DNA of 64,000 bases from an uncultured Alphaproteobacteria bacterium. Its GTDB lineage: Bacteria > Pseudomonadota > Alphaproteobacteria > RF32 > CAG-239. The notes below the pieces were generated by a model, which was not told where the DNA came from, searched no databases, and was given only the letters and a program-made list of their open reading frames with translations. The stretch spans positions 18,375 through 82,374 of the forward strand of contig CALXTE010000003.1 in assembly GCA_944391345.1 (NCBI GenBank), given 5' to 3'. The position numbers and the translations under genes were made by a program. Positions 20 through 60,324 of this stretch are shown piece after piece. The stretch's first letter is position 1; each line of letters starts with the position of its first letter.

Positions 20-57
20 TTTTTTTGTTGACTTTTGTCTAATCCTGCTTTATATCC
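20..57 (+). promoter_or_regulatory. Promoter-like cassette copy 1: T-run + GTTGACTTTTGTCTAAT 17-mer (27..43) with TTGACT -35-like and TATATC -10-like, about 63 nt upstream of the ATG at 108
   Basis: 17-mer identical to copies at 6205..6221 and 16041..16057; same spacing to the start codon in all three. Confidence 0.5.
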
Positions 58-107
58 CAAATTAGCGATTTGTATTTTTTTATTTATAATTCTTAAATTT
101 TATTTTT

Positions 108-542
108 ATGGATAATGATAATATTCAATTTCCGTTGCCGGTTCTTTATCAAAATGGGTGTCAATCATTGGCACCTTTGAAAAATGGTCTTAGGCCTGTT
201 GCTATTGTTGTCGGTGAGTTTGCTTTTATGGATGCGGCATCAAAAAGGATGCTCTTATCGTCGGCTCGACGGCATTGCAAGTCTTTGCGCTTTAAATCTT
301 TTTGTATTTCTATGGGGAGTAAGCGTGCTTGGAATGCTTTGTTAGAAAGGTCATTGGAAGATTTTAACAAGACGGCCGCGCTAATTGGCTTTAAGCCGAT
401 CGTTTTTGACGCGCCTTATTGGTTTGATCAAAAAGAAAGAGCCGAATATAGTATGGGGATTGTTGGTTTTCACCGTGTGCGCAGTATGCCTTCTGATACA
501 CTTTTGTTTTATAAGGTGCGGCCGGTTATAAAACTGAAATGA
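108..542 (+). CDS. Hypothetical protein (144 aa), no recognisable family; no SD, AT-rich leader
   Basis: Intact ORF bounded by the cassette promoter element and the shared terminator. Confidence 0.45.
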   Translation: MDNDNIQFPLPVLYQNGCQSLAPLKNGLRPVAIVVGEFAFMDAASKRMLLSSARRHCKSLRFKSFCISMGSKRAWNALLERSLEDFNKTAALIGFKPIVFDAPYWFDQKERAEYSMGIVGFHRVRSMPSDTLLFYKVRPVIKLK

Positions 543-550
543 GTTTTTAG

Positions 551-578
551 AGCTCTGCTTTGTGCAGGGCTTTTTTTA
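551..578 (+). terminator. Rho-independent terminator GCTCTGCTTTGTGCAGGGC + T-run
   Basis: Hairpin plus T7; near-identical to the terminator at 6829..6857. Confidence 0.6.
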
Positions 579-644
579 TTTTGTGCTTGATTTTTTAAAA
601 ATTTATGGTATAAGGTTGACATAGTTGGGAATATTAGTTTGAAA

Positions 645-671
645 GTGGGGTCAAAAAACCCCGCTTTTTTG
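645..671 (+). promoter_or_regulatory. Terminator-like hairpin (GTGGGGTCAAAAAACCCCGC + T6) in the rimP leader, 28 nt upstream of the start codon; possible attenuator of the rimP-nusA-infB operon
   Basis: GC stem plus T-run directly upstream of an essential operon; TTGACA -35-like at 615..620. Confidence 0.35.
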
Positions 672-698
672 TTAACTTAGTTAAAAGGAATCGCCCTT

Positions 699-3413: not shown

Positions 3414-5918
3414 ATGACAGAAGATAGTGCAAAAAGCAGATTGACATTATCAGGGAAGTCTACCCTTACCCTTAAAAATGTGGGTGATGGCGCTAAAAGC
3501 CATAATGACGGCAAAAAGGTCGTTCAGGTTGAGGTGCGCAAAAAAAGAATTATTTCTGCCGCAAAAAAAGAAGAACCAAAAGTGCAGATTGATGATGCTA
3601 CCGCTGCTAAGCTTAAACTGATTGCCGAAGCAAAAGAGCATGAGGCAAAACGTCGTCTTGAAGAAGAAGAAAAAGAACGTCAACGCCAGTTGCGTCGCGA
3701 GCAAGAAGAGGCTCTTAAAGCTCAAAAACAAGCTGAAGAACAAGAAAAAGAAAAGGCTCAGAGCCAGCAAAAAGCTGAAAACAAACCGGTCCAACAGCTT
3801 GAGCCTCAGGCTGAGATTAATCCTGAAAAATCGGCTGTGGCGGAAGAACGTGCGGTTGCAAAGGCTAAAGACAAAAAAACTCGTGATTTTGACGATGAAG
3901 AAGATAGTGATGATGAGGGCGCTTATCGTTCTCAAAAAGGCGGAAAATCTTTAAGCAAAGAAGAGGTTTTTGAACAAGAACGCAAGAAAATTATGAAGCG
4001 CAGCTTTGAACCGCAACGCCGCGGCGGCAAAGTTAATCTTCATAATGTTATGGGCGCAATGGATGATGATGACGATGATTATGGCTACGGAGCACCTCGT
4101 CGTCGTTTTAAGAAAAAACAGCCCAAGCCCCAACAAGCGCCGCAACAGCCGGCTGAAAAAATTGTAAAAGAAGTTGTTATTCCTGAAATTATTACTGTTC
4201 AGGAACTGGCTAACCGTATGGCAGAAAAGAGTGCCGAAGTTATTAAAAAACTGATGGCTCTCGGGGTTATGGCAACGATTAATCAGCCGATTGATGCTGA
4301 TACGGCTCAAATTGTGGTTGAAGAATTTGGACACAAGGTTAAACGTGTGGCAGATAGTGATGTGGAGCAAGGTTTGACCGGACCGGAAGACAAGGCTGAA
4401 GATTTGCAGCCCAGAGCACCGGTGGTTACGGTTATGGGACACGTTGACCATGGTAAAACATCTCTGCTTGATGCTTTGCGCGAAACCAATGTGGCCGCCC
4501 GTGAAGCCGGTGGTATTACCCAGCATATCGGTGCTTATCAGATTGAAGTTGCCGGTGGTAAAAAAATTACCTTTATTGATACGCCGGGGCATGAAGCATT
4601 TTCCGAAATGCGTGCTCGCGGTGCAAAAGTTACGGATATCGTTGTGTTAGTTGTGGCTGCTAATGATGGTATTATGCCGCAGACCGTCGAGGCTATTCGT
4701 CATGCTCAGGCCGCCGAGGTTCCGATTGTGGTGGCAATTAATAAAATTGATTTGCCCGGTGCAGATCCGATGAAAGTTAAAACAGCTTTGCTGCAGCACG
4801 GAATTGCCGTTGAAGAAATGGGCGGTGATAGTTTGTGCGCCGAGGTTTCTGCCAAAAAGAGAATTAATATCGACAAGTTGGTCGAAGCAATTTTGCTGCA
4901 GGCTGAAATCCTTGATTTGAAAGCTAATCCAAACCGTTTGGCACAAGGAGCGGTTATTGAAGCTAAAATGGAAAAAGGTCGTGGTTCTGTGGCTACGGTT
5001 TTGGTTCAAAACGGCACGCTTCGTGTCGGCGATATTTGTATTGCCGGAAAAGAATGGGGCCATATTCGCGCTATGTTTAATGAAAACGGCAAAAAAGTTA
5101 CCGAAGCCGGTCCGGCAACACCGGTCGAAATTCTTGGTTTGCAAGGAACACCGGCCGCCGGTGATGATTTTGTTATTGTTAAAGATGAGGCCCAAGCCAA
5201 AGAAGTTACCAATTATCGTATTCGCAAAGAGCGCGATGCAAAGCTGGTTAAGAGCGCAAAATCAGCTATGGAGCAAATGCTTGATAAGATTAAGTCCGGT
5301 GAAGTTAAACATCTTCCGGTTATTATCAAAGCTGATGTTCAAGGCTCTATCGAAGCGATTGAAGGTACCATCAAAAAACTCTCTAATGATGAAGTCAGTG
5401 TTCAGATTTTGCACTCTGCCGTAGGTCCGATTTCGGATTCAGATGTTACCTTGGCAAAGGCTTCAAATGCCTTTATTATCGGATTTAACGTTCGTGCTAT
5501 TCCGCATGCGCGTGATCTTGCTCGTCAAGACGGCGTTGATATTCGTTATTATTCCATTATCTATGATGTGGTTGATGATATTAAGAAAGCGCTGGAAGGA
5601 ATGTTAACCCCCGAACTTAAAGAAAAGATTATCGGTTATGCCGAAATTCGTAATGTCTTTAATATTACCGGTGTTGGTAAAGTCGGTGGTTGTATGGTTA
5701 CCGAAGGTTATGTTAAACGTGGCGCAAAAGTTCGCCTGTTGCGTGATAACGTTGTTATTCACGATGGTGCTCTTGCGCAGCTCAAACGTTTCAAAGAAGA
5801 CGTCCGTGAAGTAAAATCCGGTTATGAATGCGGTATGAGTTTTGAAAACTACAACGACATTCAAGTTGGTGATTTTATTGAGTGTTATGAGGTGGAGGAG
5901 ATAGCTCCAACCCTTTAA
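3414..5918 (+). CDS. infB: Translation initiation factor IF-2
   Basis: 834 aa; GTP-binding motifs [28 protein letters not shown]; K/E/Q-rich N-terminus. Confidence 0.97.
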
Positions 5919-5924
5919 AAGTTT

Positions 5925-6047
5925 ACTCTGTGGTCGACTAATACAGATTTTGCGGATAGGAAAAATGCTCATGTACTACTGTGTACACTGCGCTTTTTCC
6001 TTCCTTAAATCTTATTACTCGACTCATTCTCCAAACTTTTTGAAAAG
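5925..6047. repeat. Intergenic repeat unit, type 1 (...GGTCGACTAATACAGATTTTGCGGATAGGAAAAATGCTCATGTACTACTGTGTACACTGCGCTTTTTCCTTCC...CTCCAAACTTTTTGAAAAG), directly after the infB stop
   Basis: Near-identical to 10460..10590 and 11456..11580; internal inverted repeats GGATAGGAAAAATGC / GCGCTTTTTCCTTCC and GTGTACAC. Confidence 0.8.
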
Positions 6048-6154
6048 TCATCTAGAGGTATTTTACGCTGTCTCGAAAAATTCATGTACTATTTGTGTAC
6101 ACTAAAATTTTTCTCGCAGCTAGAAATGCCTCTATCTGTACTATTATCCCCAGT

Positions 6155-6189
6155 TTTAAGTTCGTATAATGGTCGACTAATACAGATTT
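6155..6189. repeat. Partial repeat head (AAGTTCGTATAATGGTCGACTAATACAGATTT) abutting the cassette promoter element; a degenerate core fragment lies at 6081..6112
   Basis: Matches the 5' end of type-1 units. Confidence 0.6.
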
Positions 6190-6197
6190 GGATATCG

Positions 6198-6236
6198 TTT
6201 TTTTGTTGACTTTTGTCTAATAATATTTTAGTCTTT
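6198..6236 (+). promoter_or_regulatory. Promoter-like cassette copy 2 (17-mer at 6205..6221)
   Basis: Exact 17-mer and T-run; about 60 nt upstream of the ATG at 6282. Confidence 0.5.
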
Positions 6237-6281
6237 TTTTGTTTTTTTTATTATGATGTCAAATTTAATAATTATACTTAT

Positions 6282-6824
6282 ATGGAAAAAAAAGAAGTTT
6301 TAGATCGGATTTTTGCTCTCATGAAGGATGCAGATATATCTCCGGAAGAAGTTGCCCATTATTTTGGCGGATATTTTGTAAAAAAGGGTGGGCCTCGAGA
6401 ACGTTTTTCGTTTGAAGTTATTTATGAGAATGATAAACGTTCATGGTTTCCTTTACAAGGCGTGCAGCCAAAGGCCTTGATTATTGCGGGAAAGGCTGTT
6501 TTTATTAACCATTCGACTGATCATTTAGATTGGTTTGAGTCCGGAAAATATTGCGAAGAACAAACTATTCTTGGTAAGAAATGTTCTTGCGGTGATCGGC
6601 ATTTTTGGCTGGTTGAGGTTCGACCACGCTTGACGCAGATTAATATTCAGCGTGTAAGAATGGGGTTTGAACCACTTTGTCCTCATGATATTTTGTGGAC
6701 AGACAACGAATGTGGACTCGGAAGAGGAGCCGGAATAGTTTATTTTTCCGGAAGTCCTGATAATCTTGAGGCCAGCGGAAAGCTTAATGCCTACTTTGCC
6801 TGTCCGGTTGCTTCTTTAGATTAA
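6282..6824 (+). CDS. Hypothetical Cys-rich protein (180 aa) with no recognisable family, occupying the usual rbfA position between infB and truB
   Basis: Intact ORF. The track start at 6213 is a TTG inside the promoter element; the first ATG is at 6282. Flanked by the cassette promoter and the shared terminator. Confidence 0.5.
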   Translation: MEKKEVLDRIFALMKDADISPEEVAHYFGGYFVKKGGPRERFSFEVIYENDKRSWFPLQGVQPKALIIAGKAVFINHSTDHLDWFESGKYCEEQTILGKKCSCGDRHFWLVEVRPRLTQINIQRVRMGFEPLCPHDILWTDNECGLGRGAGIVYFSGSPDNLEASGKLNAYFACPVASLD

Positions 6825-6828
6825 GAAA

Positions 6829-6857
6829 AAGCTCTGCTTATGCAGGGCTTTTTTTGG
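6829..6857 (+). terminator. Rho-independent terminator GCTCTGCTTATGCAGGGC + T-run
   Basis: Near-identical to 551..578. Confidence 0.65.
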
Positions 6858-6933
6858 TTTTAAATCAGTTGACAGGGGGCGGTTTATCCTTTATCACCTT
6901 CGGTATAAGGTTTTAATGTTACGGAATTTTGGA

Positions 6934-8341: not shown

Positions 8342-10459
8342 ATGGTCGAATTGAATATTTGCCGCAAAGAATTGGATTGGGGCGGCAGAAAATTGGTGTT
8401 GGAAACAGGTAAAGTTGCGAAGCAGGCTCTCGGTGCCGTTGAGGCTACTTATGGCGGAACAACGGTTTTGGCTACCGTTTGTGCTGCAAAAGAGGCTGCG
8501 CCCGATCAGGATTTCTTCCCTTTGACCGTTAACTATCAAGAAAAATATTATGCTACCGGTAAAATCCCCGGCGGATTTATGAAACGCGAAGGCAAGCCTT
8601 CCGAGCGCGAAGTGCTTATCTCTCGCTTGATTGACAGACCTATTCGTCCGCTGTTTCCGGATGCTTTTAAAAATGAAGTTCAAGTTATTTGTACCGTTCT
8701 TTCTCATGACCAGCAGACAGATTCCGACGTTGTGGCGATGATTGCCGCTTCCGCCGCTTTGGCAATTTCGGGTATTCCGTTCCTCGGGCCTATCGGTGCT
8801 GCTAAAATCGGTTATAAAAATGGTGAATATATCTTGAACCCGACAATTGAACAGCAAAAAGAATCTGAACTTGAGCTGGCAGTGGCCGGTACATCCGAAG
8901 GTGTGCTGATGGTTGAATCTGAGGCTCAGGAGTTGTCCGAAGAAACCATGCTTGGCGCGGTTATGTTCGGATTTGAAAACTTCCAGCCGGTTATTGCCAT
9001 GATTAACGAAATGGTTAAAGAAGCCGGAAAGCCGCGTTGGGAAATGCCGAAATTCCCGCCGGAGTTTGATGAACTCTACAACAAGCTTGAAAAAGGCTTT
9101 ATCTCTAAGTTTGAAGAAGCTTTCAAAGAAACCGATAAACTGAAACGCGGTGAGCTTGTTGCTCAGGCTTCTGAAGAGTTTAAGGCAACCCTTGATCCGG
9201 AAAATGAGTTTGAACAAAAGTTTGCTCAAGATGCTATCGAAAAATTGATGCACAAAGTTGTTCGTGAAAAAGTTTTGACAACCGGCAAACGTATTGACGG
9301 TCGTGATACCAAAACCGTTCGTCCGATTTGGTGCGAAGTTGATGTTTTGCCGATGGCTCATGGCTCAGCTATCTTTACTCGTGGTGAAACTCAGGCTTTG
9401 GTTGTTACAACCTTGGGTACGGGCGAAGATGCTCAAATTGTTGACGGTTTGATGGAAGAATATAAAGAAGACTTTATGCTGAACTATAACTTCCCGCCGT
9501 TCTCGGTTGGTGAATGTGGTCGTATCGGTAGCCCCGGACGTCGTGAAATTGGTCACGGAAAATTGGCTTGGCGTGCTATTCACCCGATGATGCCGAAAAA
9601 TAAAGATACTTTCCCTTATACCGTTCGCGTTGTTTCTGAAATTTTGGAATCAAATGGTTCTTCTTCAATGGCAACGGTTTGCGGAACAACAATGTCTTTG
9701 ATGTCGGCCGGTGTGCCAATGGCTAAACCAGTTGCCGGTATTGCTATGGGCTTGATTAAGGAAGATGACGGGCGTGTGGCTGTCTTGACCGATATTCTCG
9801 GTGATGAAGACCACCTCGGCGATATGGACTTCAAGGTTGCCGGTACAAAAGACGGTGTTACCGCTTTGCAGATGGATATTAAAATCACATCAATCACCAA
9901 AGATATTATGAAAACTGCTTTGGCTCAGGCTCATGAAGGTCGTATCCATATTTTGGGTGAGATGGCAAAGGCTATTTCTGAACCGCGTCCTCATGTTTCG
10001 GACAAAGCACCGCGTATTGTTGCAATTAAGATTCCGGTTGATAAAATTCGTGAAGTTATCGGTTCAGGCGGTAAGGTTATTCGTGAAATTACTGAAAAAA
10101 CGCACTGCAAAATTGATATCAGTGACGACGGTGTTATCAAAATCGCTTCGCTCAAAAAAGAAGACGGTGATGCCGCTCTTGAATGGATTACCGGTATTGT
10201 TGCCGAGCCGGAAGAAGGCAAAATCTATCATGGTGTTATTACCAAGATTATGGATTTTGGCGCTTTTGTTCGCTTCCTTGGAACAACCGAAGGTCTGGTT
10301 CACATTTCTGAAGTCAAGAATGAGCGCATTGCTTCCGTTTCCGACTTCTACAAAGAAGGTGACTCAATTTGGGTAAAATGTCTTGGCACGGACAACCGCG
10401 GCAAGGTTAAGCTTTCTGCGAAGAGAGTTAATCAGGAGACTGGGGAAGACCTCGAATAA
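8342..10459 (+). CDS. pnp: Polyribonucleotide nucleotidyltransferase (PNPase)
   Basis: 705 aa with RNase PH x2, KH and S1 domains; RBS AAAGGTG. Confidence 0.97.
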
Positions 10460-10600
10460 AAAAGTTCGTATAATGGTCGATTAATACAGATTTAGCGGAT
10501 AGGAAAAATGCTCATGTACTTCTATGTACACTGCGCTTTTTTCTTCCTTAAATCTTATTACTCGACTCATTCTCCGAACTTTTTGAAAAGTTCGTGTTAA
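10460..10600. repeat. Intergenic repeat unit type 1, directly after the pnp stop
   Basis: About 90% identical to 5925..6047 and 11456..11580. Confidence 0.8.
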
Positions 10601-10603
10601 AAA

Positions 10604-10634
10604 CAAAGAGATTGTTTTGCAATCTCTTTGTTTG
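10604..10634. terminator. Bidirectional terminator (CAAAGAGATTG-TTTTG-CAATCTCTTTG) between pnp (+) and the HTH gene (-)
   Basis: Perfect 11-bp stem with flanking A/T runs. Confidence 0.7.
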
Positions 10635-10635
10635 T

Positions 10636-10878
10636 TTAAGATGCTTTGATGAGTTCAAATTTTAATTTATAATTATAAATGGCGGCGATGACGGCGACGC
10701 GTCTTAATCCAAAAGCTCGGCCTTGTTCGACATTTTTAATCCGGCGGCGTGACAATCCGCTTATTTTTGATATATTATCAATGCTTAATTGGTGTTCTTG
10801 TCTAAGTTCATATAATCTCTTTCCGACTTCGGCTCGATTATCTTCTAAATAAATGATTTGTTCTTTTTTTATTCCCAT
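10636..10878 (-). CDS. XRE/Cro-type helix-turn-helix transcriptional regulator (80 aa)
   Basis: Motif QLSIDNISKISGLSRRRIKNVEQG; perfect AAGGAG RBS 8 nt before the ATG at 10878 (the longer track start at 10914 lacks an RBS). Confidence 0.7.
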   Translation of the reverse strand: MGIKKEQIIYLEDNRAEVGKRLYELRQEHQLSIDNISKISGLSRRRIKNVEQGRAFGLRRVAVIAAIYNYKLKFELIKAS

Positions 10879-10914
10879 TTTTTCAGCTCCTTTTTTATTT
10901 TGTGGTAAAAACAA

Positions 10915-11060
10915 AGCCTGCCAAGAAGGCAGGCGGAGCTAAACAACTGTTTACACACAGTCACCGTTATTCAATATATTAGCGGTACTCCGCCCAAAAG
11001 CGGAGGATTTTATTATTATGTAGGTGTTGTTTAGGCACCGTCGGTTACCTCTAACCGACA
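10915..11060 (-). other. Structured non-coding region upstream of the HTH gene with three hairpins (CCTGCC..GGCAGG, CTCCGC..GCGGAG, CGGTTA..TAACCG); the first acts as a terminator on the minus strand
   Basis: Inverted repeats read directly; no ORF. Confidence 0.2.
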
Positions 11061-11094
11061 ATGTGAGTATAAATAATGGTGATAGAGTTTGCAA

Positions 11095-11292
11095 GGAAAA
11101 GTTTGTATAACGGGCAACTAATACAGATTTAGCGGGTCTCCTCCATCCTCACGTACTACTTTGTACGCTGCGGTGTCGTCGCCCTAAAATCTTATTATTT
11201 GCCTCGTTCTCCAAACTTTTACAAAGTTTATATAACGGGTAACTAATACAGATTTAGCGGGTCTCCTCCATCCTCACGTACTAGTTTGTACC
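11095..11292. repeat. Repeat cluster part 1: type-2 unit (11095..11225) plus a truncated type-2 head (11226..11292)
   Basis: Shared AACTAATACAGATTTAGCGGGTCTCCTCCATCCTCACGTACTA core; related to type 1 at both ends. Confidence 0.75.
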
Positions 11293-11394
11293 AATTCCGA
11301 CTAAACCTTTGTTGCGAAAGCTGTCGCATTCTAACAAAGGAAAGTCTCATTGCTTATCCTTAAAGAAAGCACATTCAAGTGCTTTCTTTTGCGG
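11293..11394 (+). ncRNA. Candidate small RNA or insert inside a split repeat unit; two hairpins, the second (AGAAAGCAC-ATTCAA-GTGCTTTCT + TTTTG, 11364..11394) is an intrinsic terminator on the + strand
   Basis: Unique about 100 nt between a repeat head (11226..11292) and the matching repeat tail (11419..11455); terminator orientation. Confidence 0.25.
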
Positions 11395-11418
11395 CAGTGA
11401 TACTTTTGCCCTTGACGC

Positions 11419-11607
11419 CTACTACTCGACTCATTCTCCGAACTTTTTAAAAAACTCGTATAATGGCCGATTAATACAGATTTTGCGGATAGGAAAAATG
11501 CTCATGTACTTCTGTGTACACTGCGCTTTTTCCTTCCTTAAATCTTATTACTCGACTCATTCTCCAAACTTTTTGAAAAAACTCGTATAACGGGCAACTA
11601 ATACAGT
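11419..11607. repeat. Repeat cluster part 2: type-1 tail (11419..11455), full type-1 unit (11456..11580), type-2 head (11581..11607)
   Basis: Direct sequence identity with the other copies. Confidence 0.8.
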
Positions 11608-12775: not shown

Positions 12776-13153
12776 TTATTCTTCTTTGGGAATTTGTTCT
12801 TCCAGCTTGTGTGATTCTGTGCCGATTTTTGTGCTGACGTAAAAGCTCAAAATTACCGGAAGAATGTACTTCATAAAGTTTTCAGTGACACCGGTTAAAA
12901 TAAAGGTGTTTATAACAGAATAGTTTAATGCTAAAACAAATAAACTCCACATTTTTTCATTCAGATGTTTTAGTTTGGTAATTTTATTTTCGTTTTTTTC
13001 CTGTTTTTTTAAGATGTCGTTAAACTTACTTTTTAAATAGGAAAAATATGCAAAAGATAAAATCACCAGTAGAAACATAATAATCAGGTAGAGATTTTCT
13101 AATACGACTTCTTTCATAACATCAAATTTTTGTTGTTTATAATAAAAACACAA
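12776..13153 (-). CDS. Small integral membrane protein (3 predicted TM helices), unknown function
   Basis: Hydrophobic segments; AT-rich; alternative start at 13117. Confidence 0.5.
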   Translation of the reverse strand: MCFYYKQQKFDVMKEVVLENLYLIIMFLLVILSFAYFSYLKSKFNDILKKQEKNENKITKLKHLNEKMWSLFVLALNYSVINTFILTGVTENFMKYILPVILSFYVSTKIGTESHKLEEQIPKEE

Positions 13154-13174
13154 GCAGCATTTGTTTTCTATAGA

Positions 13175-13654
13175 TTAAGCTGTTTCCGGTTCAACTTTTA
13201 GCCGATCACTGGTGCAGACGATGACCTTTACGGCCACTGTGTCACCGATTTTGTATTTTTGACGAGAAGCATTAACCAGCTCTGCCGGAAAACTCTCGTC
13301 TTTGTTGGCTATATTAAGTTCACCAAAAATTCGTCCGCTTTCTATTCTCTCTACTTTGAAAAAATGAGTTTCATTTTCCATAACGGCTTTAAACTCGTTT
13401 TCTACAAATGATAAAGAATATAGATTGGTTCCTAGTCCGAACACAATTGCCCCGTAAATCCAGCGACTGCTTAATACATCATGAAAATAACAAATGATGC
13501 TGAAAACAATCAAAAGGAAAAAACAAAATAAAACCCATAACTTCCATAAAAGTTGTTTGTCAAAGTTCCAAAAGGGGGTTTTGAACAGTGCATAAAAGAA
13601 ATTTGCCAGATTTCCTAAAATGATAATCCACAAAAAAATTTCAAGCGTTTCCAT
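13175..13654 (-). CDS. Membrane protein (159 aa): N-terminal 3 TM helices plus C-terminal beta-rich soluble domain; paralog of 13764..14243
   Basis: About 30% identity with its neighbour along the full length; conserved 5' region. Confidence 0.6.
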   Translation of the reverse strand: METLEIFLWIIILGNLANFFYALFKTPFWNFDKQLLWKLWVLFCFFLLIVFSIICYFHDVLSSRWIYGAIVFGLGTNLYSLSFVENEFKAVMENETHFFKVERIESGRIFGELNIANKDESFPAELVNASRQKYKIGDTVAVKVIVCTSDRLKVEPETA

Positions 13655-13730
13655 AACAATAAGGTTTATAGATTAATAATCAAAATAATAGTTCTCTGAT
13701 TTTCAAGTAGCATTTTAATTTTAAAGAGTC

Positions 13731-13766
13731 AAACAAAAAGGAGAGCCCAAAGCTCTCCTTTTTTTA
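13731..13766 (-). terminator. Terminator between the two paralogs (AGGAGAGC-CCAAA-GCTCTCCT with A/T runs)
   Basis: Hairpin plus T-run on the minus strand. Confidence 0.55.
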
Positions 13767-14243
13767 ATTTTCAGCAGGTTCAACAATGATTTCATTCGGA
13801 TGGCACAGCAGAACTCTGACCGGAATAATTTCACCATAGTGATAATCGGCATAAAGCGGACATACGAGCCGCGCTTCAACAGTTTCTTTAGTGCTATGAA
13901 TGGCTAATGTTCCTCGCACTTTATTGTTTTGCCACGATGTTAGGCGAAATAGATGAATTTCTCCATACATAACGGAGTTAAATTTTTCATCAAGAAGATG
14001 TCTGCTAATTAGCCCCATAATGACGGTAAGCACAATTATTGCCAAATACCATGCTTGTTGGGCATTTTCTTTTTGAAAATAAACATAGCTTAAAATGCCA
14101 AGTACTAAAATACACAAGCCATTAGCCGTTTTCCAAAAAGAACGTTTGTAGTCGTTCAGAAATGGTCGTTTGATAACGGCATAGATAAATTCCAATAGGA
14201 ATAAGGTGCAAATAAGACCCATAAAAAATTCAAGTGCTGTCAT
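13764..14243 (-). CDS. Membrane protein (159 aa), paralog of 13175..13654
   Basis: Same architecture; upstream 14244..14310 about 85% identical to 13655..13730. Confidence 0.6.
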   Translation of the reverse strand: MTALEFFMGLICTLFLLEFIYAVIKRPFLNDYKRSFWKTANGLCILVLGILSYVYFQKENAQQAWYLAIIVLTVIMGLISRHLLDEKFNSVMYGEIHLFRLTSWQNNKVRGTLAIHSTKETVEARLVCPLYADYHYGEIIPVRVLLCHPNEIIVEPAEN

Positions 14244-15945: not shown

Positions 15946-16032
15946 TAAAAAAACTCCTTAAAAACAAAATCTTAAAAATTGATTTGGTTATAACCGAATT
16001 CAATTGAGATTGCAACCGCTTTTTTGAGGTGG

Positions 16033-16075
16033 TTTTTTTTGTTGACTTTTGTCTAATTGGTGGTATGTTAGGTTC
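16033..16075 (+). promoter_or_regulatory. Promoter-like cassette copy 3 (17-mer at 16041..16057) upstream of thyA
   Basis: Exact 17-mer plus T-run, 57 nt before the thyA ATG. Confidence 0.5.
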
Positions 16076-16114
16076 AATTCACTTTATTATTAATTCTTAA
16101 AATATTATTTTTTT

Positions 16115-16900
16115 ATGAAACAGTATCTTGATTTACTTAAAGACATTATTGAAAACGGTCATGACAAAGAAGACCGCACCGGTACAGGAACACGCTCGGT
16201 TTTTGGACGTAGTATGAGGTTTGATTTATCGCAAGGATTTCCACTACTGACAACAAAGCGGATGTTTCTGAAAGGTGTGATTTCCGAGCTGTTGTGGTTT
16301 GTCAAAGGGGACACAAATATTGAGTTCCTGCATGATAACGGTGTTCATATCTGGGATGAATGGGCTGATGAAAAAGGTGACCTCGGGCCTATCTATGGCG
16401 CGCAATGGCGCAACTGGGATAACCTTGGTATCGACCAATTGCAAAAGCTGGTGAAAGATATCAAAAACACGCCGGACAGTCGACGGCTTATTGTTTCGGC
16501 TTGGAATCCTACGCAGCTTGATGATATGGCTTTGCCGCCGTGCCATATGATGTATCAATGCTATGTGCAAGACGGGAAGCTGTCGCTTATGATGTATCAG
16601 CGTAGTGGTGATATGTTTCTCGGTGTGCCGTTCAACATTGCCTCTTATGCCTTGCTGACCATGATGTTAGCGCAAGTCTGTGGGCTTGAAGCCGGTGAGT
16701 ATATTCATGTTTTGGGTGATGCTCATATCTACAAAAACCACTTTGCGCAGGTGAAAGAACAACTCTCTCGTGAGCCGTATCCTCTGCCAAAGATGATTTT
16801 GAACCACAAGGTTCATGAAATCGATGGCTTTACGCTTAAAGATTTTACGCTGGAAGGATATCAGTATCATCCGGCGATTAAGGGAAAAGTTTCGGTTTAA
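16115..16900 (+). CDS. thyA: Thymidylate synthase ThyA
   Basis: 261 aa, PCH catalytic motif; not adjacent to folA. Confidence 0.97.
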
Positions 16901-16916: not shown

Positions 16917-16946
16917 CGGGGTTGCCTGCGGGCAGCCCTTTTTTTA
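16917..16946 (+). terminator. thyA terminator (GGGTTGCCTGCGGGCAGCCC + T7)
   Basis: GC hairpin plus T-run. Confidence 0.6.
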
Positions 16947-59964: not shown

Positions 59965-60324
59965 TTAATCCGGTTGCTGACCGTTGATTTCTTTGATTAT
60001 CTCAAACATTTGTTTGGCCGCAGGCGCATTTTTGGTCCCAAGGGTCTTAACGTTGAGGTCATGAAGCGCCGCTTGACTAATCTGATATTTTGCAGCGTAG
60101 TCTCTTAGGTTTTGTCTTATCTCTCGGCAAGTGTTTTGTGCATTTGGTTTGCAGAGGTTGCCGGCTGCTGTGTGACTGTGTCTTTGAAGATAACAACACA
60201 TGCGGTAGAGCAAAACGGCTTCAGAATCGCTGCGCAGCTGATGTTCTTGCGTGTAGCTGTGAATTTTGTAGAAATTTTCGGTAGCAACAAGGCTCTGTTC
60301 GTCTTTTAATAATAATCTTTCCAT
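59965..60324 (-). CDS. Hypothetical protein (119 aa, Cys/His-containing), next to tRNA-Arg
   Basis: ORF only; no RBS. Confidence 0.35.
   Translation of the reverse strand: MERLLLKDEQSLVATENFYKIHSYTQEHQLRSDSEAVLLYRMCCYLQRHSHTAAGNLCKPNAQNTCREIRQNLRDYAAKYQISQAALHDLNVKTLGTKNAPAAKQMFEIIKEINGQQPD

Follow-up and report, generated by a model that had tools for sequence, protein, structure and literature searches.

A 17-nucleotide element, GTTGACTTTTGTCTAAT, repeated in uncultured gut Alphaproteobacteria, is quite probably the -35 hexamer TTGACT together with the adjoining ~10 bp of spacer of a sigma-70-type promoter that drives one-gene cassettes. The conserved part of the spacer appears to be a derived signal of one subclade, held by purifying selection, and may well be an operator. 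The genes behind it are mostly members of a single clade-restricted family of small proteins and, in this genus, also include thymidylate synthase (thyA).

Three copies of the element in the window

The window, by which we mean the whole 64-kb stretch of DNA analyzed, holds exact copies of GTTGACTTTTGTCTAAT at 27-43, 6205-6221 and 16041-16057, all on the plus strand. Tolerating up to three mismatches brought no site in the window beyond these three copies, where shuffled windows lead one to expect 0.27 such sites and three were reached in 0 of 100 shuffles; the 10 kb upstream of the window are without an additional copy. Since the shuffles fail to reproduce the copies and the identical sequence is present in independent ENA, Logan and NCBI assemblies, chance and assembly artifact are ruled out, and the earlier note was right both about the exact triplicate and about its being beyond chance. 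The idea of a DNA-uptake sequence or other over-represented k-mer is ruled out as well, the k-mers not being enriched. The 17-mer was found in no searchable paper, and the literature on DUF1566 and RF32 yielded nothing on the cargo family or the motif.

Directly 5' of the 17-mer stands a T-run in each copy (T7 at 20-26, T7 at 6198-6204, T8 at 16033-16040), and between 17-mer and ATG lie 64 nt for ORF108, 60 nt for ORF6282 and 57 nt for thyA at 16115. Both regularities had been claimed before and both stand, with corrected values: the runs measure T7-8, not T7-9, and the near-constant distance is 57-64 nt, the range of 56-63 nt having been off by one at the top. The features of the three cassettes are as follows.

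20..56, plus strand: promoter module copy 1, with T7 run (20-26), 17-mer (27-43), -35 TTGACT (28-33), box TTTGTCTAA (34-42), 17-bp spacer and -10 TATATC (51-56); predicted transcription start ~63
63..107, plus strand: predicted 5' leader of ORF108, A/T-rich, without SD, with the block ATTTATAAT at 82-90
108..542, plus strand: ORF108, 144 aa, a short DUF1566/C-type-lectin-like member without the N-terminal helical domain
549..573, plus strand: intrinsic terminator of cassette 1, AGAGCTCTGC...GCAGGGCT plus T-run
6198..6234, plus strand: promoter module copy 2, with T7 run (6198-6204), 17-mer (6205-6221), 17-bp spacer and weak -10 TAGTCT (6229-6234, 3/6); predicted transcription start ~6241
6241..6281, plus strand: predicted leader of ORF6282, without SD, with the block ATTATGATG at 6250-6258
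6282..6824, plus strand: ORF6282, 180 aa, a DUF1566/CTLD-like member with an N-terminal two-helix domain
6824..6855, plus strand: intrinsic terminator of cassette 2, followed by truB's own promoter; truB has an SD
16033..16069, plus strand: promoter module copy 3, with T8 run (16033-16040), 17-mer (16041-16057), 16-bp spacer, extended -10 TG (16061-16062) and -10 TATGTT (16064-16069); predicted transcription start ~16076
16076..16114, plus strand: predicted leader of thyA, without SD, with an exact ATTATTAAT at 16086-16094
16115..16900, plus strand: thyA (thymidylate synthase), monocistronic; PF00303, E 1e-123
16918..16939, plus strand: intrinsic terminator of the thyA cassette

Anatomy of the probable promoter

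TTGACT matches TTGACA at 5/6 positions in all copies, and the earlier suggestion that it acts as a -35 element is corroborated by a -10-like hexamer at 16-17 bp in 30 of 40 independent instances. The count covers non-redundant instances of the clade and requires a hexamer that agrees with TATAAT at 4/6 or more positions, has A as its second base and lies at a spacer of 16 or 17; the background is 7.8%, which gives P ~2e-25. TA occupies the -10 spot in 39/40 instances and is preceded by an extended TG in 12/40; the -10 score is 3/6 or lower in 10/40. The TATATC of copy 1, whose T-run begins 3 nt past the lptG stop codon (15-17), is kept in the orthologs L020, L024 and L028, where adjacent bases vary.

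All 30 MAG instances have an ORF beginning 60-98 nt downstream on the same strand, 90 aa or longer unless the contig end cuts it short. Read 5' to 3', the module comprises, often, the terminator hairpin of the upstream gene, then the T-run, (G/C/T)TTGACTTTTGTCTAA(T/A/C), 6-7 nt often with TG, TAnnnT, ~14 nt, a ATTATTAAT-like block, 14-28 nt of A/T and the ATG, with the ATTATTAAT-like block following the 17-mer at a steady distance of 26-30 nt. RNA polymerase would bind the UP-element-like T-run, often shared with the preceding terminator as its U-tract, and next TTGACT and TAnnnT, and transcription would start ~7 nt past the -10, near window positions 63, 6241 and 16076. The length of the T-run varies from T6 to T8 among close orthologs (L016, L018, L020, L024, L028), which is compatible with homopolymer slippage.

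Ordinary promoters nearby have the same frame. The rimP promoter is CTTGAT-N17-TGGTATAAG, conserved in the window and L074, the truB promoter is TTGACA-N17-TATCAC (6869-6897), and those of rplY and the rpsF operon are CTTGCA-N17-TAnnnn; because the spacers of all four are unrelated to the box, the box is not a general promoter requirement.

Distribution and invariance of the box

An exact scan of 185,579 species genomes with a 21-mer retrieved ~12 uncultured Alphaproteobacteria MAGs from gut samples; a match in Vibrio (L022) is regarded as chance. Human-gut metagenome contigs of GC 0.41-0.47 share the module architecture, and metagenome matches to a 20-mer from outside the clade (GC 0.18-0.38 or >0.5) come without the module and are also regarded as chance. 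Among 2.9 million viral contigs there was no match to the motif. Its copy number is low, ~2-3 per 100 kb.

In 240 kb from ~12 species we counted 29 exact copies, five with one or two mismatches, confined to base 1 or 17, and none with three; sites with four or more mismatches are at the shuffle background. These genomes span more than one genus (lptG 75% and rimP 70% amino acid identity, protein divergence of up to ~25-30%), and among them the DNA on either side of the motif cannot be aligned. Most of these loci were fetched by exact match, which inflates the apparent invariance, and a gene-anchored sample was used as a counter-check: 34 non-redundant genes with enough upstream DNA, collected with a profile of the cargo family. 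The motif, at up to three mismatches, lies at -61 to -81 of 31 of the 34, exact in 16 and with one, two and three mismatches in 7, 5 and 3, respectively; the rare changes in the core here include TCcAA and TTcTGTC.

The 15-mer core TTGACTTTTGTCTAA stands ahead of family genes, of thyA in this genus only, of an SPFH gene and of another orphan family. Outside this set the picture changes. Divergent family members retrieved by protein similarity (L085, L088) have TTGACA-N16-TAnnnA with unrelated spacers and keep an SD-less ATTATT leader; the same holds for the spacers and leaders of the thyA orthologs in L090 and L092 (76% and 71% identity), and a thyA ortholog at 69% identity lies inside a folA-thyA operon. 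The check on thyA upstream regions in relatives that the earlier note had proposed was run, and it found the 17-mer in L016 and L018 but other spacers in L090 and L092. Because housekeeping promoters and the outgroup family and thyA genes have unrelated spacers, we take the box to be a derived, subclade-specific signal under purifying selection.

One-gene cassettes, gained and lost

The module would drive autonomous one-gene cassettes, a single ORF followed directly by an intrinsic terminator. We count three autonomous monocistronic cassettes in the window because each downstream gene closes with its own terminator, and terminators also stand behind nearly all motif-driven genes of the related loci. 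ORF108 lies between lptG and rimP-nusA-ylxR-infB, with rimP's own promoter, attenuator and SD at ~590-698, after cassette 1; ORF6282 lies between infB and truB-rpsO-pnp; and thyA is divergent from ychF.

At syntenic sites the cassettes come and go. In L074, lptG directly precedes the rimP promoter and the ORF108 cassette is missing; in L030 a cassette separates NUDIX from the following gene, two genes that overlap or lie 3 nt apart in L001 and L074; the window, L074 and L015 have the infB-proximal cassette in common; and family members form tandem arrays at L011, L014 and L021. Cassettes begin 1-3 nt past the upstream stop codon, at precise intergenic points. In L016 the T-run/GTTGAC of the thyA promoter is the exact site of an extra one-gene cassette of 637 bp (1472-2108). 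This cassette opens with TTTTTTGTTGAC, has a different spacer and its own terminator, and encodes an ORF of ~180 aa (ATG at 1542 by eye) whose length and product are putative. At this insertion point the window and L018 have just a short hairpin remnant (16014-16034). Occupied and empty sites, when compared, revealed no target-site duplication or terminal inverted repeats, and the ORF lists of eight loci and the Pfam-scanned genes of the window contain no integrase. Of the portable promoter module envisaged earlier, portability survives in altered form: the promoter moves with whole gene cassettes, present or absent at syntenic sites. At the level of sequence comparison, orientation, geometry, cargo, and gain and loss of cassettes are established.

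Several neighboring features deserve mention in their own right. The usual slot of rbfA between infB and truB (window 5919-6915) is filled by repeat units and the ORF6282 cassette, and a simple tblastn with the E. coli sequence as query found no rbfA in the window. The leader of rimP-nusA-infB (window 590-698; L074 5896-6019) contains a terminator-like hairpin plus U-run (-22 kcal/mol, z -2.3), presumably a NusA-type attenuator. A family of ~127-nt repeats, both dispersed and tandem (window 5916-6190 and 10459-11606; also L090, upstream of thyA), has the consensus AAAGTTCGTATAATGGTCGAYTAATACAGATTTAGCGG...CTCAYGTACT..TGTACRCTGCG...CCTTAAATCTTATTACTCGACTCATTCTCCRAACTTTTTGAAAA. Its units begin at the infB and pnp stop codons, with several more between pnp and pth, and a shortened unit adjoins the T-run of motif copy 2. 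Hairpins and a variable segment lie within the repeat unit, which matches no Rfam family and could represent a REP/BIME-like or sRNA family.

The cargo

ORF108 and ORF6282, listed earlier as two unknown ORFs, can now both be placed: they are paralogs (23% identity, E 2e-9) in one DUF1566/C-type-lectin-like family. A profile search of 1.8 billion representatives found 52 clusters only. Ten of 43 family members match PF07603 (Lcl_C/DUF1566), the best at E 3e-10, and the two window proteins themselves fall below Pfam significance. An AlphaFold (AF2) family model built from 43 sequences reached a pLDDT of 91.5, against 36 from a shallow alignment; its best PDB match is the C-terminal domain of Legionella Lcl, 8q4e (E 0.017, TM 0.40/0.52), and C-type lectins come next. 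At the level of the family, profile matches and predicted fold mark the cargo as DUF1566/C-type-lectin-like proteins, restricted to the clade.

The family proteins are very small, 140-200 aa, many with a short N-terminal two-helix domain, and reading of their N-terminal sequences indicated neither signal peptide nor lipobox. In three members the two-helix N-terminal extension (~30 residues) weakly matches (E ~0.002) the N-terminal dimerization domain of H-NS. Coding sequences have diverged to ~20-25% identity; in the family cassettes the regulatory flanks are kept on both sides while the gene between them diverges fast. The terminator stems of the family follow the consensus AAAGCTCTGAG...CTCAGAGCTTTT or AGCTCTGC...GCAGGGCT, seen at window 549-573 and 6824-6855 and at L011, L014, L021, L042, L048, L063, L070 and L082; targets outside the family have other terminators.

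Those other targets are thyA (window, L016, L018), an SPFH/Band-7 protein (L013), a second orphan family (L023, L025, L026, L029, L062, L066) and a few singletons. The proposal of a regulon that includes thymidylate synthase is thereby narrowed: the motif does define a gene set with thyA in it, but only in this genus, and the set is mainly one DUF1566-like family. The search for a DNA-binding (HTH) protein came up empty both for the motif targets and for their neighbors; an autoregulated DNA-binding protein was looked for among the non-family targets in particular, and none was found. The cargo is absent from the defense library PADLOC and gives one weak PHROG match only in the phage library; with that single match and the empty search of viral contigs, a phage origin was rejected. 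We also rejected the reading of the DUF1566-like cargo as a DGR target, a template repeat of the ORF108 and ORF6282 3' regions being absent from the 64-kb window.

Leaders without SD

The absence of an SD from the three leaders, already remarked on in the earlier note, was confirmed and extends to all 30 MAG instances. Because an SD-like motif accompanies 40 of 63 genes in a crude gene calling of the window and none of these three, the SD-less leader is a specific property, not a habit of the genome. The predicted folds of the leaders are no more stable than those of shuffled sequence, with MFE from -3.9 (thyA) to -7.9 kcal/mol (ORF108, z -0.6) and z ~0 across the three, and no matching RNA family was found for them. 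The mRNA would have an unstructured A/U-rich leader of 35-60 nt with a ATTATTAAT-like block ~14 nt past the -10, and translation would proceed without SD from this open leader, ribosomal protein S1 being a guess at the factor involved. Because its distance from the promoter is constant, the ATTATT block could also be a DNA-level element. As an independent genome-wide signal ATTATTAAT was dropped: it is mildly enriched (69 vs 43 expected) and meaningful in the context of a leader only.

The design occurs more widely as a minority gene class in which an SD-less A/T-rich leader carries an ATTATT(A/T)A(A/T) block ~14-23 nt past the -10, most genes having an SD. Members of the class are also found at window 12776-14243 and 59965-60324, both on the minus strand, and at L085, L088, L090 and L092; most of them encode small orphan proteins, among which are two tandem membrane paralogs of 159 aa. 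The leader is kept across genera on thyA and the DUF1566-like family even where the 17-mer is missing, and the leader design is older than the spacer box.

A possible operator and its alternatives

We give a little better than an even chance to the reading that a putative subclade-specific regulator uses TTTGTCTAA as its operator; this box lies at about -29 to -21 and makes up an imperfect dyad together with TTGAC. The operator reading is drawn because the box is invariant beyond the needs of RNA polymerase and is shared by a defined gene set. Judged by position, the putative regulator would most likely be a repressor, and its co-regulated targets would be the paralogs of the cytoplasmic DUF1566/C-type-lectin-like family, joined in this genus by thyA. 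As noticed earlier, there is an imperfect inverted repeat, TTGAC-N4-GTCtA, but it comes to 4/7 complementary pairs (TnGAC-N4-GTCnA); another way to read the sequence is as a direct repeat, TTGACT/TTGTCT, whose period is 7 bp, and neither symmetry is significant alone. Formally, strong purifying selection for promoter strength alone could also account for the conservation of the box. More ambitious, and quite doubtful in our view, is the notion of a lineage-specific expression system in which the 15-mer serves as the address and a dedicated factor switches dozens of self-contained cassettes as a block. Were it true, the accessory gene pool would have a private transcription-translation lane, with the ATTATT leader as its SD-independent translation channel, and a fast-diversifying lectin-like family would be run together with thymidylate synthase, with a possible link to phage or stress.

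Another history, unlikely but deserving of a hearing, has the promoter merely inherited with duplicated cassettes, the 17-mer being kept by gene conversion or promoter strength with no dedicated factor. Most targets are paralogs of one family, some still in the tandem arrays at L011, L014 and L021; their terminator stems are alike too (AAAGCTCTGAG...CTCAGAGCTTTT), and TTGAC plus a T-run is a generic strong -35 context in these genomes. Inheritance sits less easily with 15 bp that are invariant across genera when coding identity has fallen to ~20-25% and the DNA 3' of the box is randomized, with the sharing of the box by the non-homologous thyA, SPFH and second orphan family genes, whose terminators differ, and with housekeeping promoters that manage without it; RNA polymerase is not known for so strict a reading of 9-10 spacer bases. 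The precise gain and loss of cassettes 1-3 nt past stop codons raises the thought that T-run plus 17-mer is a recombination or insertion site, an att-like end of mobile one-gene cassettes whose promoter look is secondary, and the 637-bp cassette of L016, sitting exactly at the T-run/GTTGAC junction and itself starting with TTTTTTGTTGAC, would fit. We consider this very improbable: the inserted cassette shares the T-run and GTTGAC only, not the box, we saw neither target-site duplications nor terminal inverted repeats, and no matching site at the 3' end and no recombinase gene close by, viral contigs gave 0 matches, and the fixed spacing to -10 and ORF suits transcription, not recombination.

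Two further candidates concern the protein that would read the element, and we give hardly any credence to either. An alternative sigma factor or phage-type RNA polymerase, in place of sigma-70 plus operator, would agree with the narrow target set and with an invariance of 15-24 bp that recalls the promoters of single-subunit RNA polymerases and some alternative-sigma regulons. Against this, TTGACT, the 16-17 bp spacer and TG-n-TAnnnT are canonical for the housekeeping sigma, as in neighboring promoters, the conserved block stops ~20 bp upstream of the predicted start, unlike promoters of the T7 type, and no phage link was found. The box TTGA-N6-TCTA also resembles the anaerobox TTGA-N6-TCAA of CRP/FNR-family (FixK-type) activators, with 7/8 specified positions matching the consensus; the deviating base, however, is invariant, half of the match is the -35 hexamer, and the box is centered at about -28 from the predicted start, not at -41.5 (class II) or -61.5 (class I), so that a class II activator box was rejected on position. 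Because a CRP/FNR-type protein bound at about -28 would repress, this candidate merges with the operator reading.

Implications

If the promoter with an embedded operator is the right reading, the module would be the first cis-regulatory handle on this uncultured group of gut Alphaproteobacteria, comprising a promoter/operator box, a target set and a class of SD-less leaders. With the box as a probe, the members of the regulon could be listed across MAGs and the search for the regulator steered by phylogenetic profiling, and the module could serve as a compact promoter-leader-terminator part if work with these bacteria or with relatives of theirs becomes feasible. The cassettes also show that the otherwise conserved nusA-infB-truB-pnp cluster can take in single genes, each with a promoter and terminator of its own, and not be disrupted.

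Comparison with known systems

The cargo resembles DUF1566/Lcl_C (PF07603) in the profile matches of 10/43 members and in a fold closest to Legionella Lcl 8q4e, but it differs in the missing signal peptide and lipobox, the size of 140-200 aa and the restriction to 52 clusters among 1.8 billion. Its leaders are like other SD-independent A/U-rich leaders in composition, absence of an SD and an MFE near that of shuffled sequence. S1-dependent enhancers and SD-less A/U-rich leaders are common in Bacteroidota, Cyanobacteria and many Caulobacter mRNAs; here, in contrast, such leaders form a minority class in an SD-using genome (40/63) and carry a positioned ATTATT(A/T)A(A/T) block.

As compact units between conserved genes, present or absent, with a promoter that travels along, the cassettes recall Correia/MITE elements and integron cassettes. 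They differ in having their own promoter and terminator with no terminal inverted repeats, target duplication or integrase seen. A MITE/Correia-like element was rejected because terminal inverted repeats and target-site duplications are absent and every copy is gene-proximal, and an integron gene cassette because the units have their own promoter and an ordinary terminator at the 3' end, with no integrase seen. Near-identical promoters and leaders on divergent paralogs, some of them in tandem, are also known from family-specific upstream elements such as the Borrelia 'upstream homology box' families and the promoters of Mycoplasma variable lipoprotein genes. The element described here, in contrast, also stands before thyA and SPFH, its cargo is cytoplasmic and not a set of surface lipoproteins, and there is no phase-variation repeat between -35 and -10.

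The closest likeness is to alphaproteobacterial sigma-70 (RpoD) promoters, for which the Sinorhizobium consensus is CTTGAC-N17-CTATAT: both have (G/C)TTGAC, a 16-17 bp spacer, TAnnnT often after TG, and a T-rich upstream tract, and the difference lies in 9-10 spacer bases that are invariant here across genera and unrelated genes. Operators embedded in core promoters, such as LexA boxes, phage CI/Cro sites, TetR-type sites and FNR/FixK repressor sites, likewise place a block of 15-17 bp over the -35 and spacer, with weak dyad symmetry and a small gene set; in the present case symmetry is poor, conservation is nearly all-or-none instead of a degenerate consensus, and the box is not known to match any of these operators. 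On this comparison the module appears to function as alphaproteobacterial housekeeping promoters ordinarily do, with an operator embedded in it. Elements of this sort are familiar; the box is probably the docking site of a regulator, and the new part, as judged from sequence, is a well-delimited putative cis-regulatory box of an uncultured clade.
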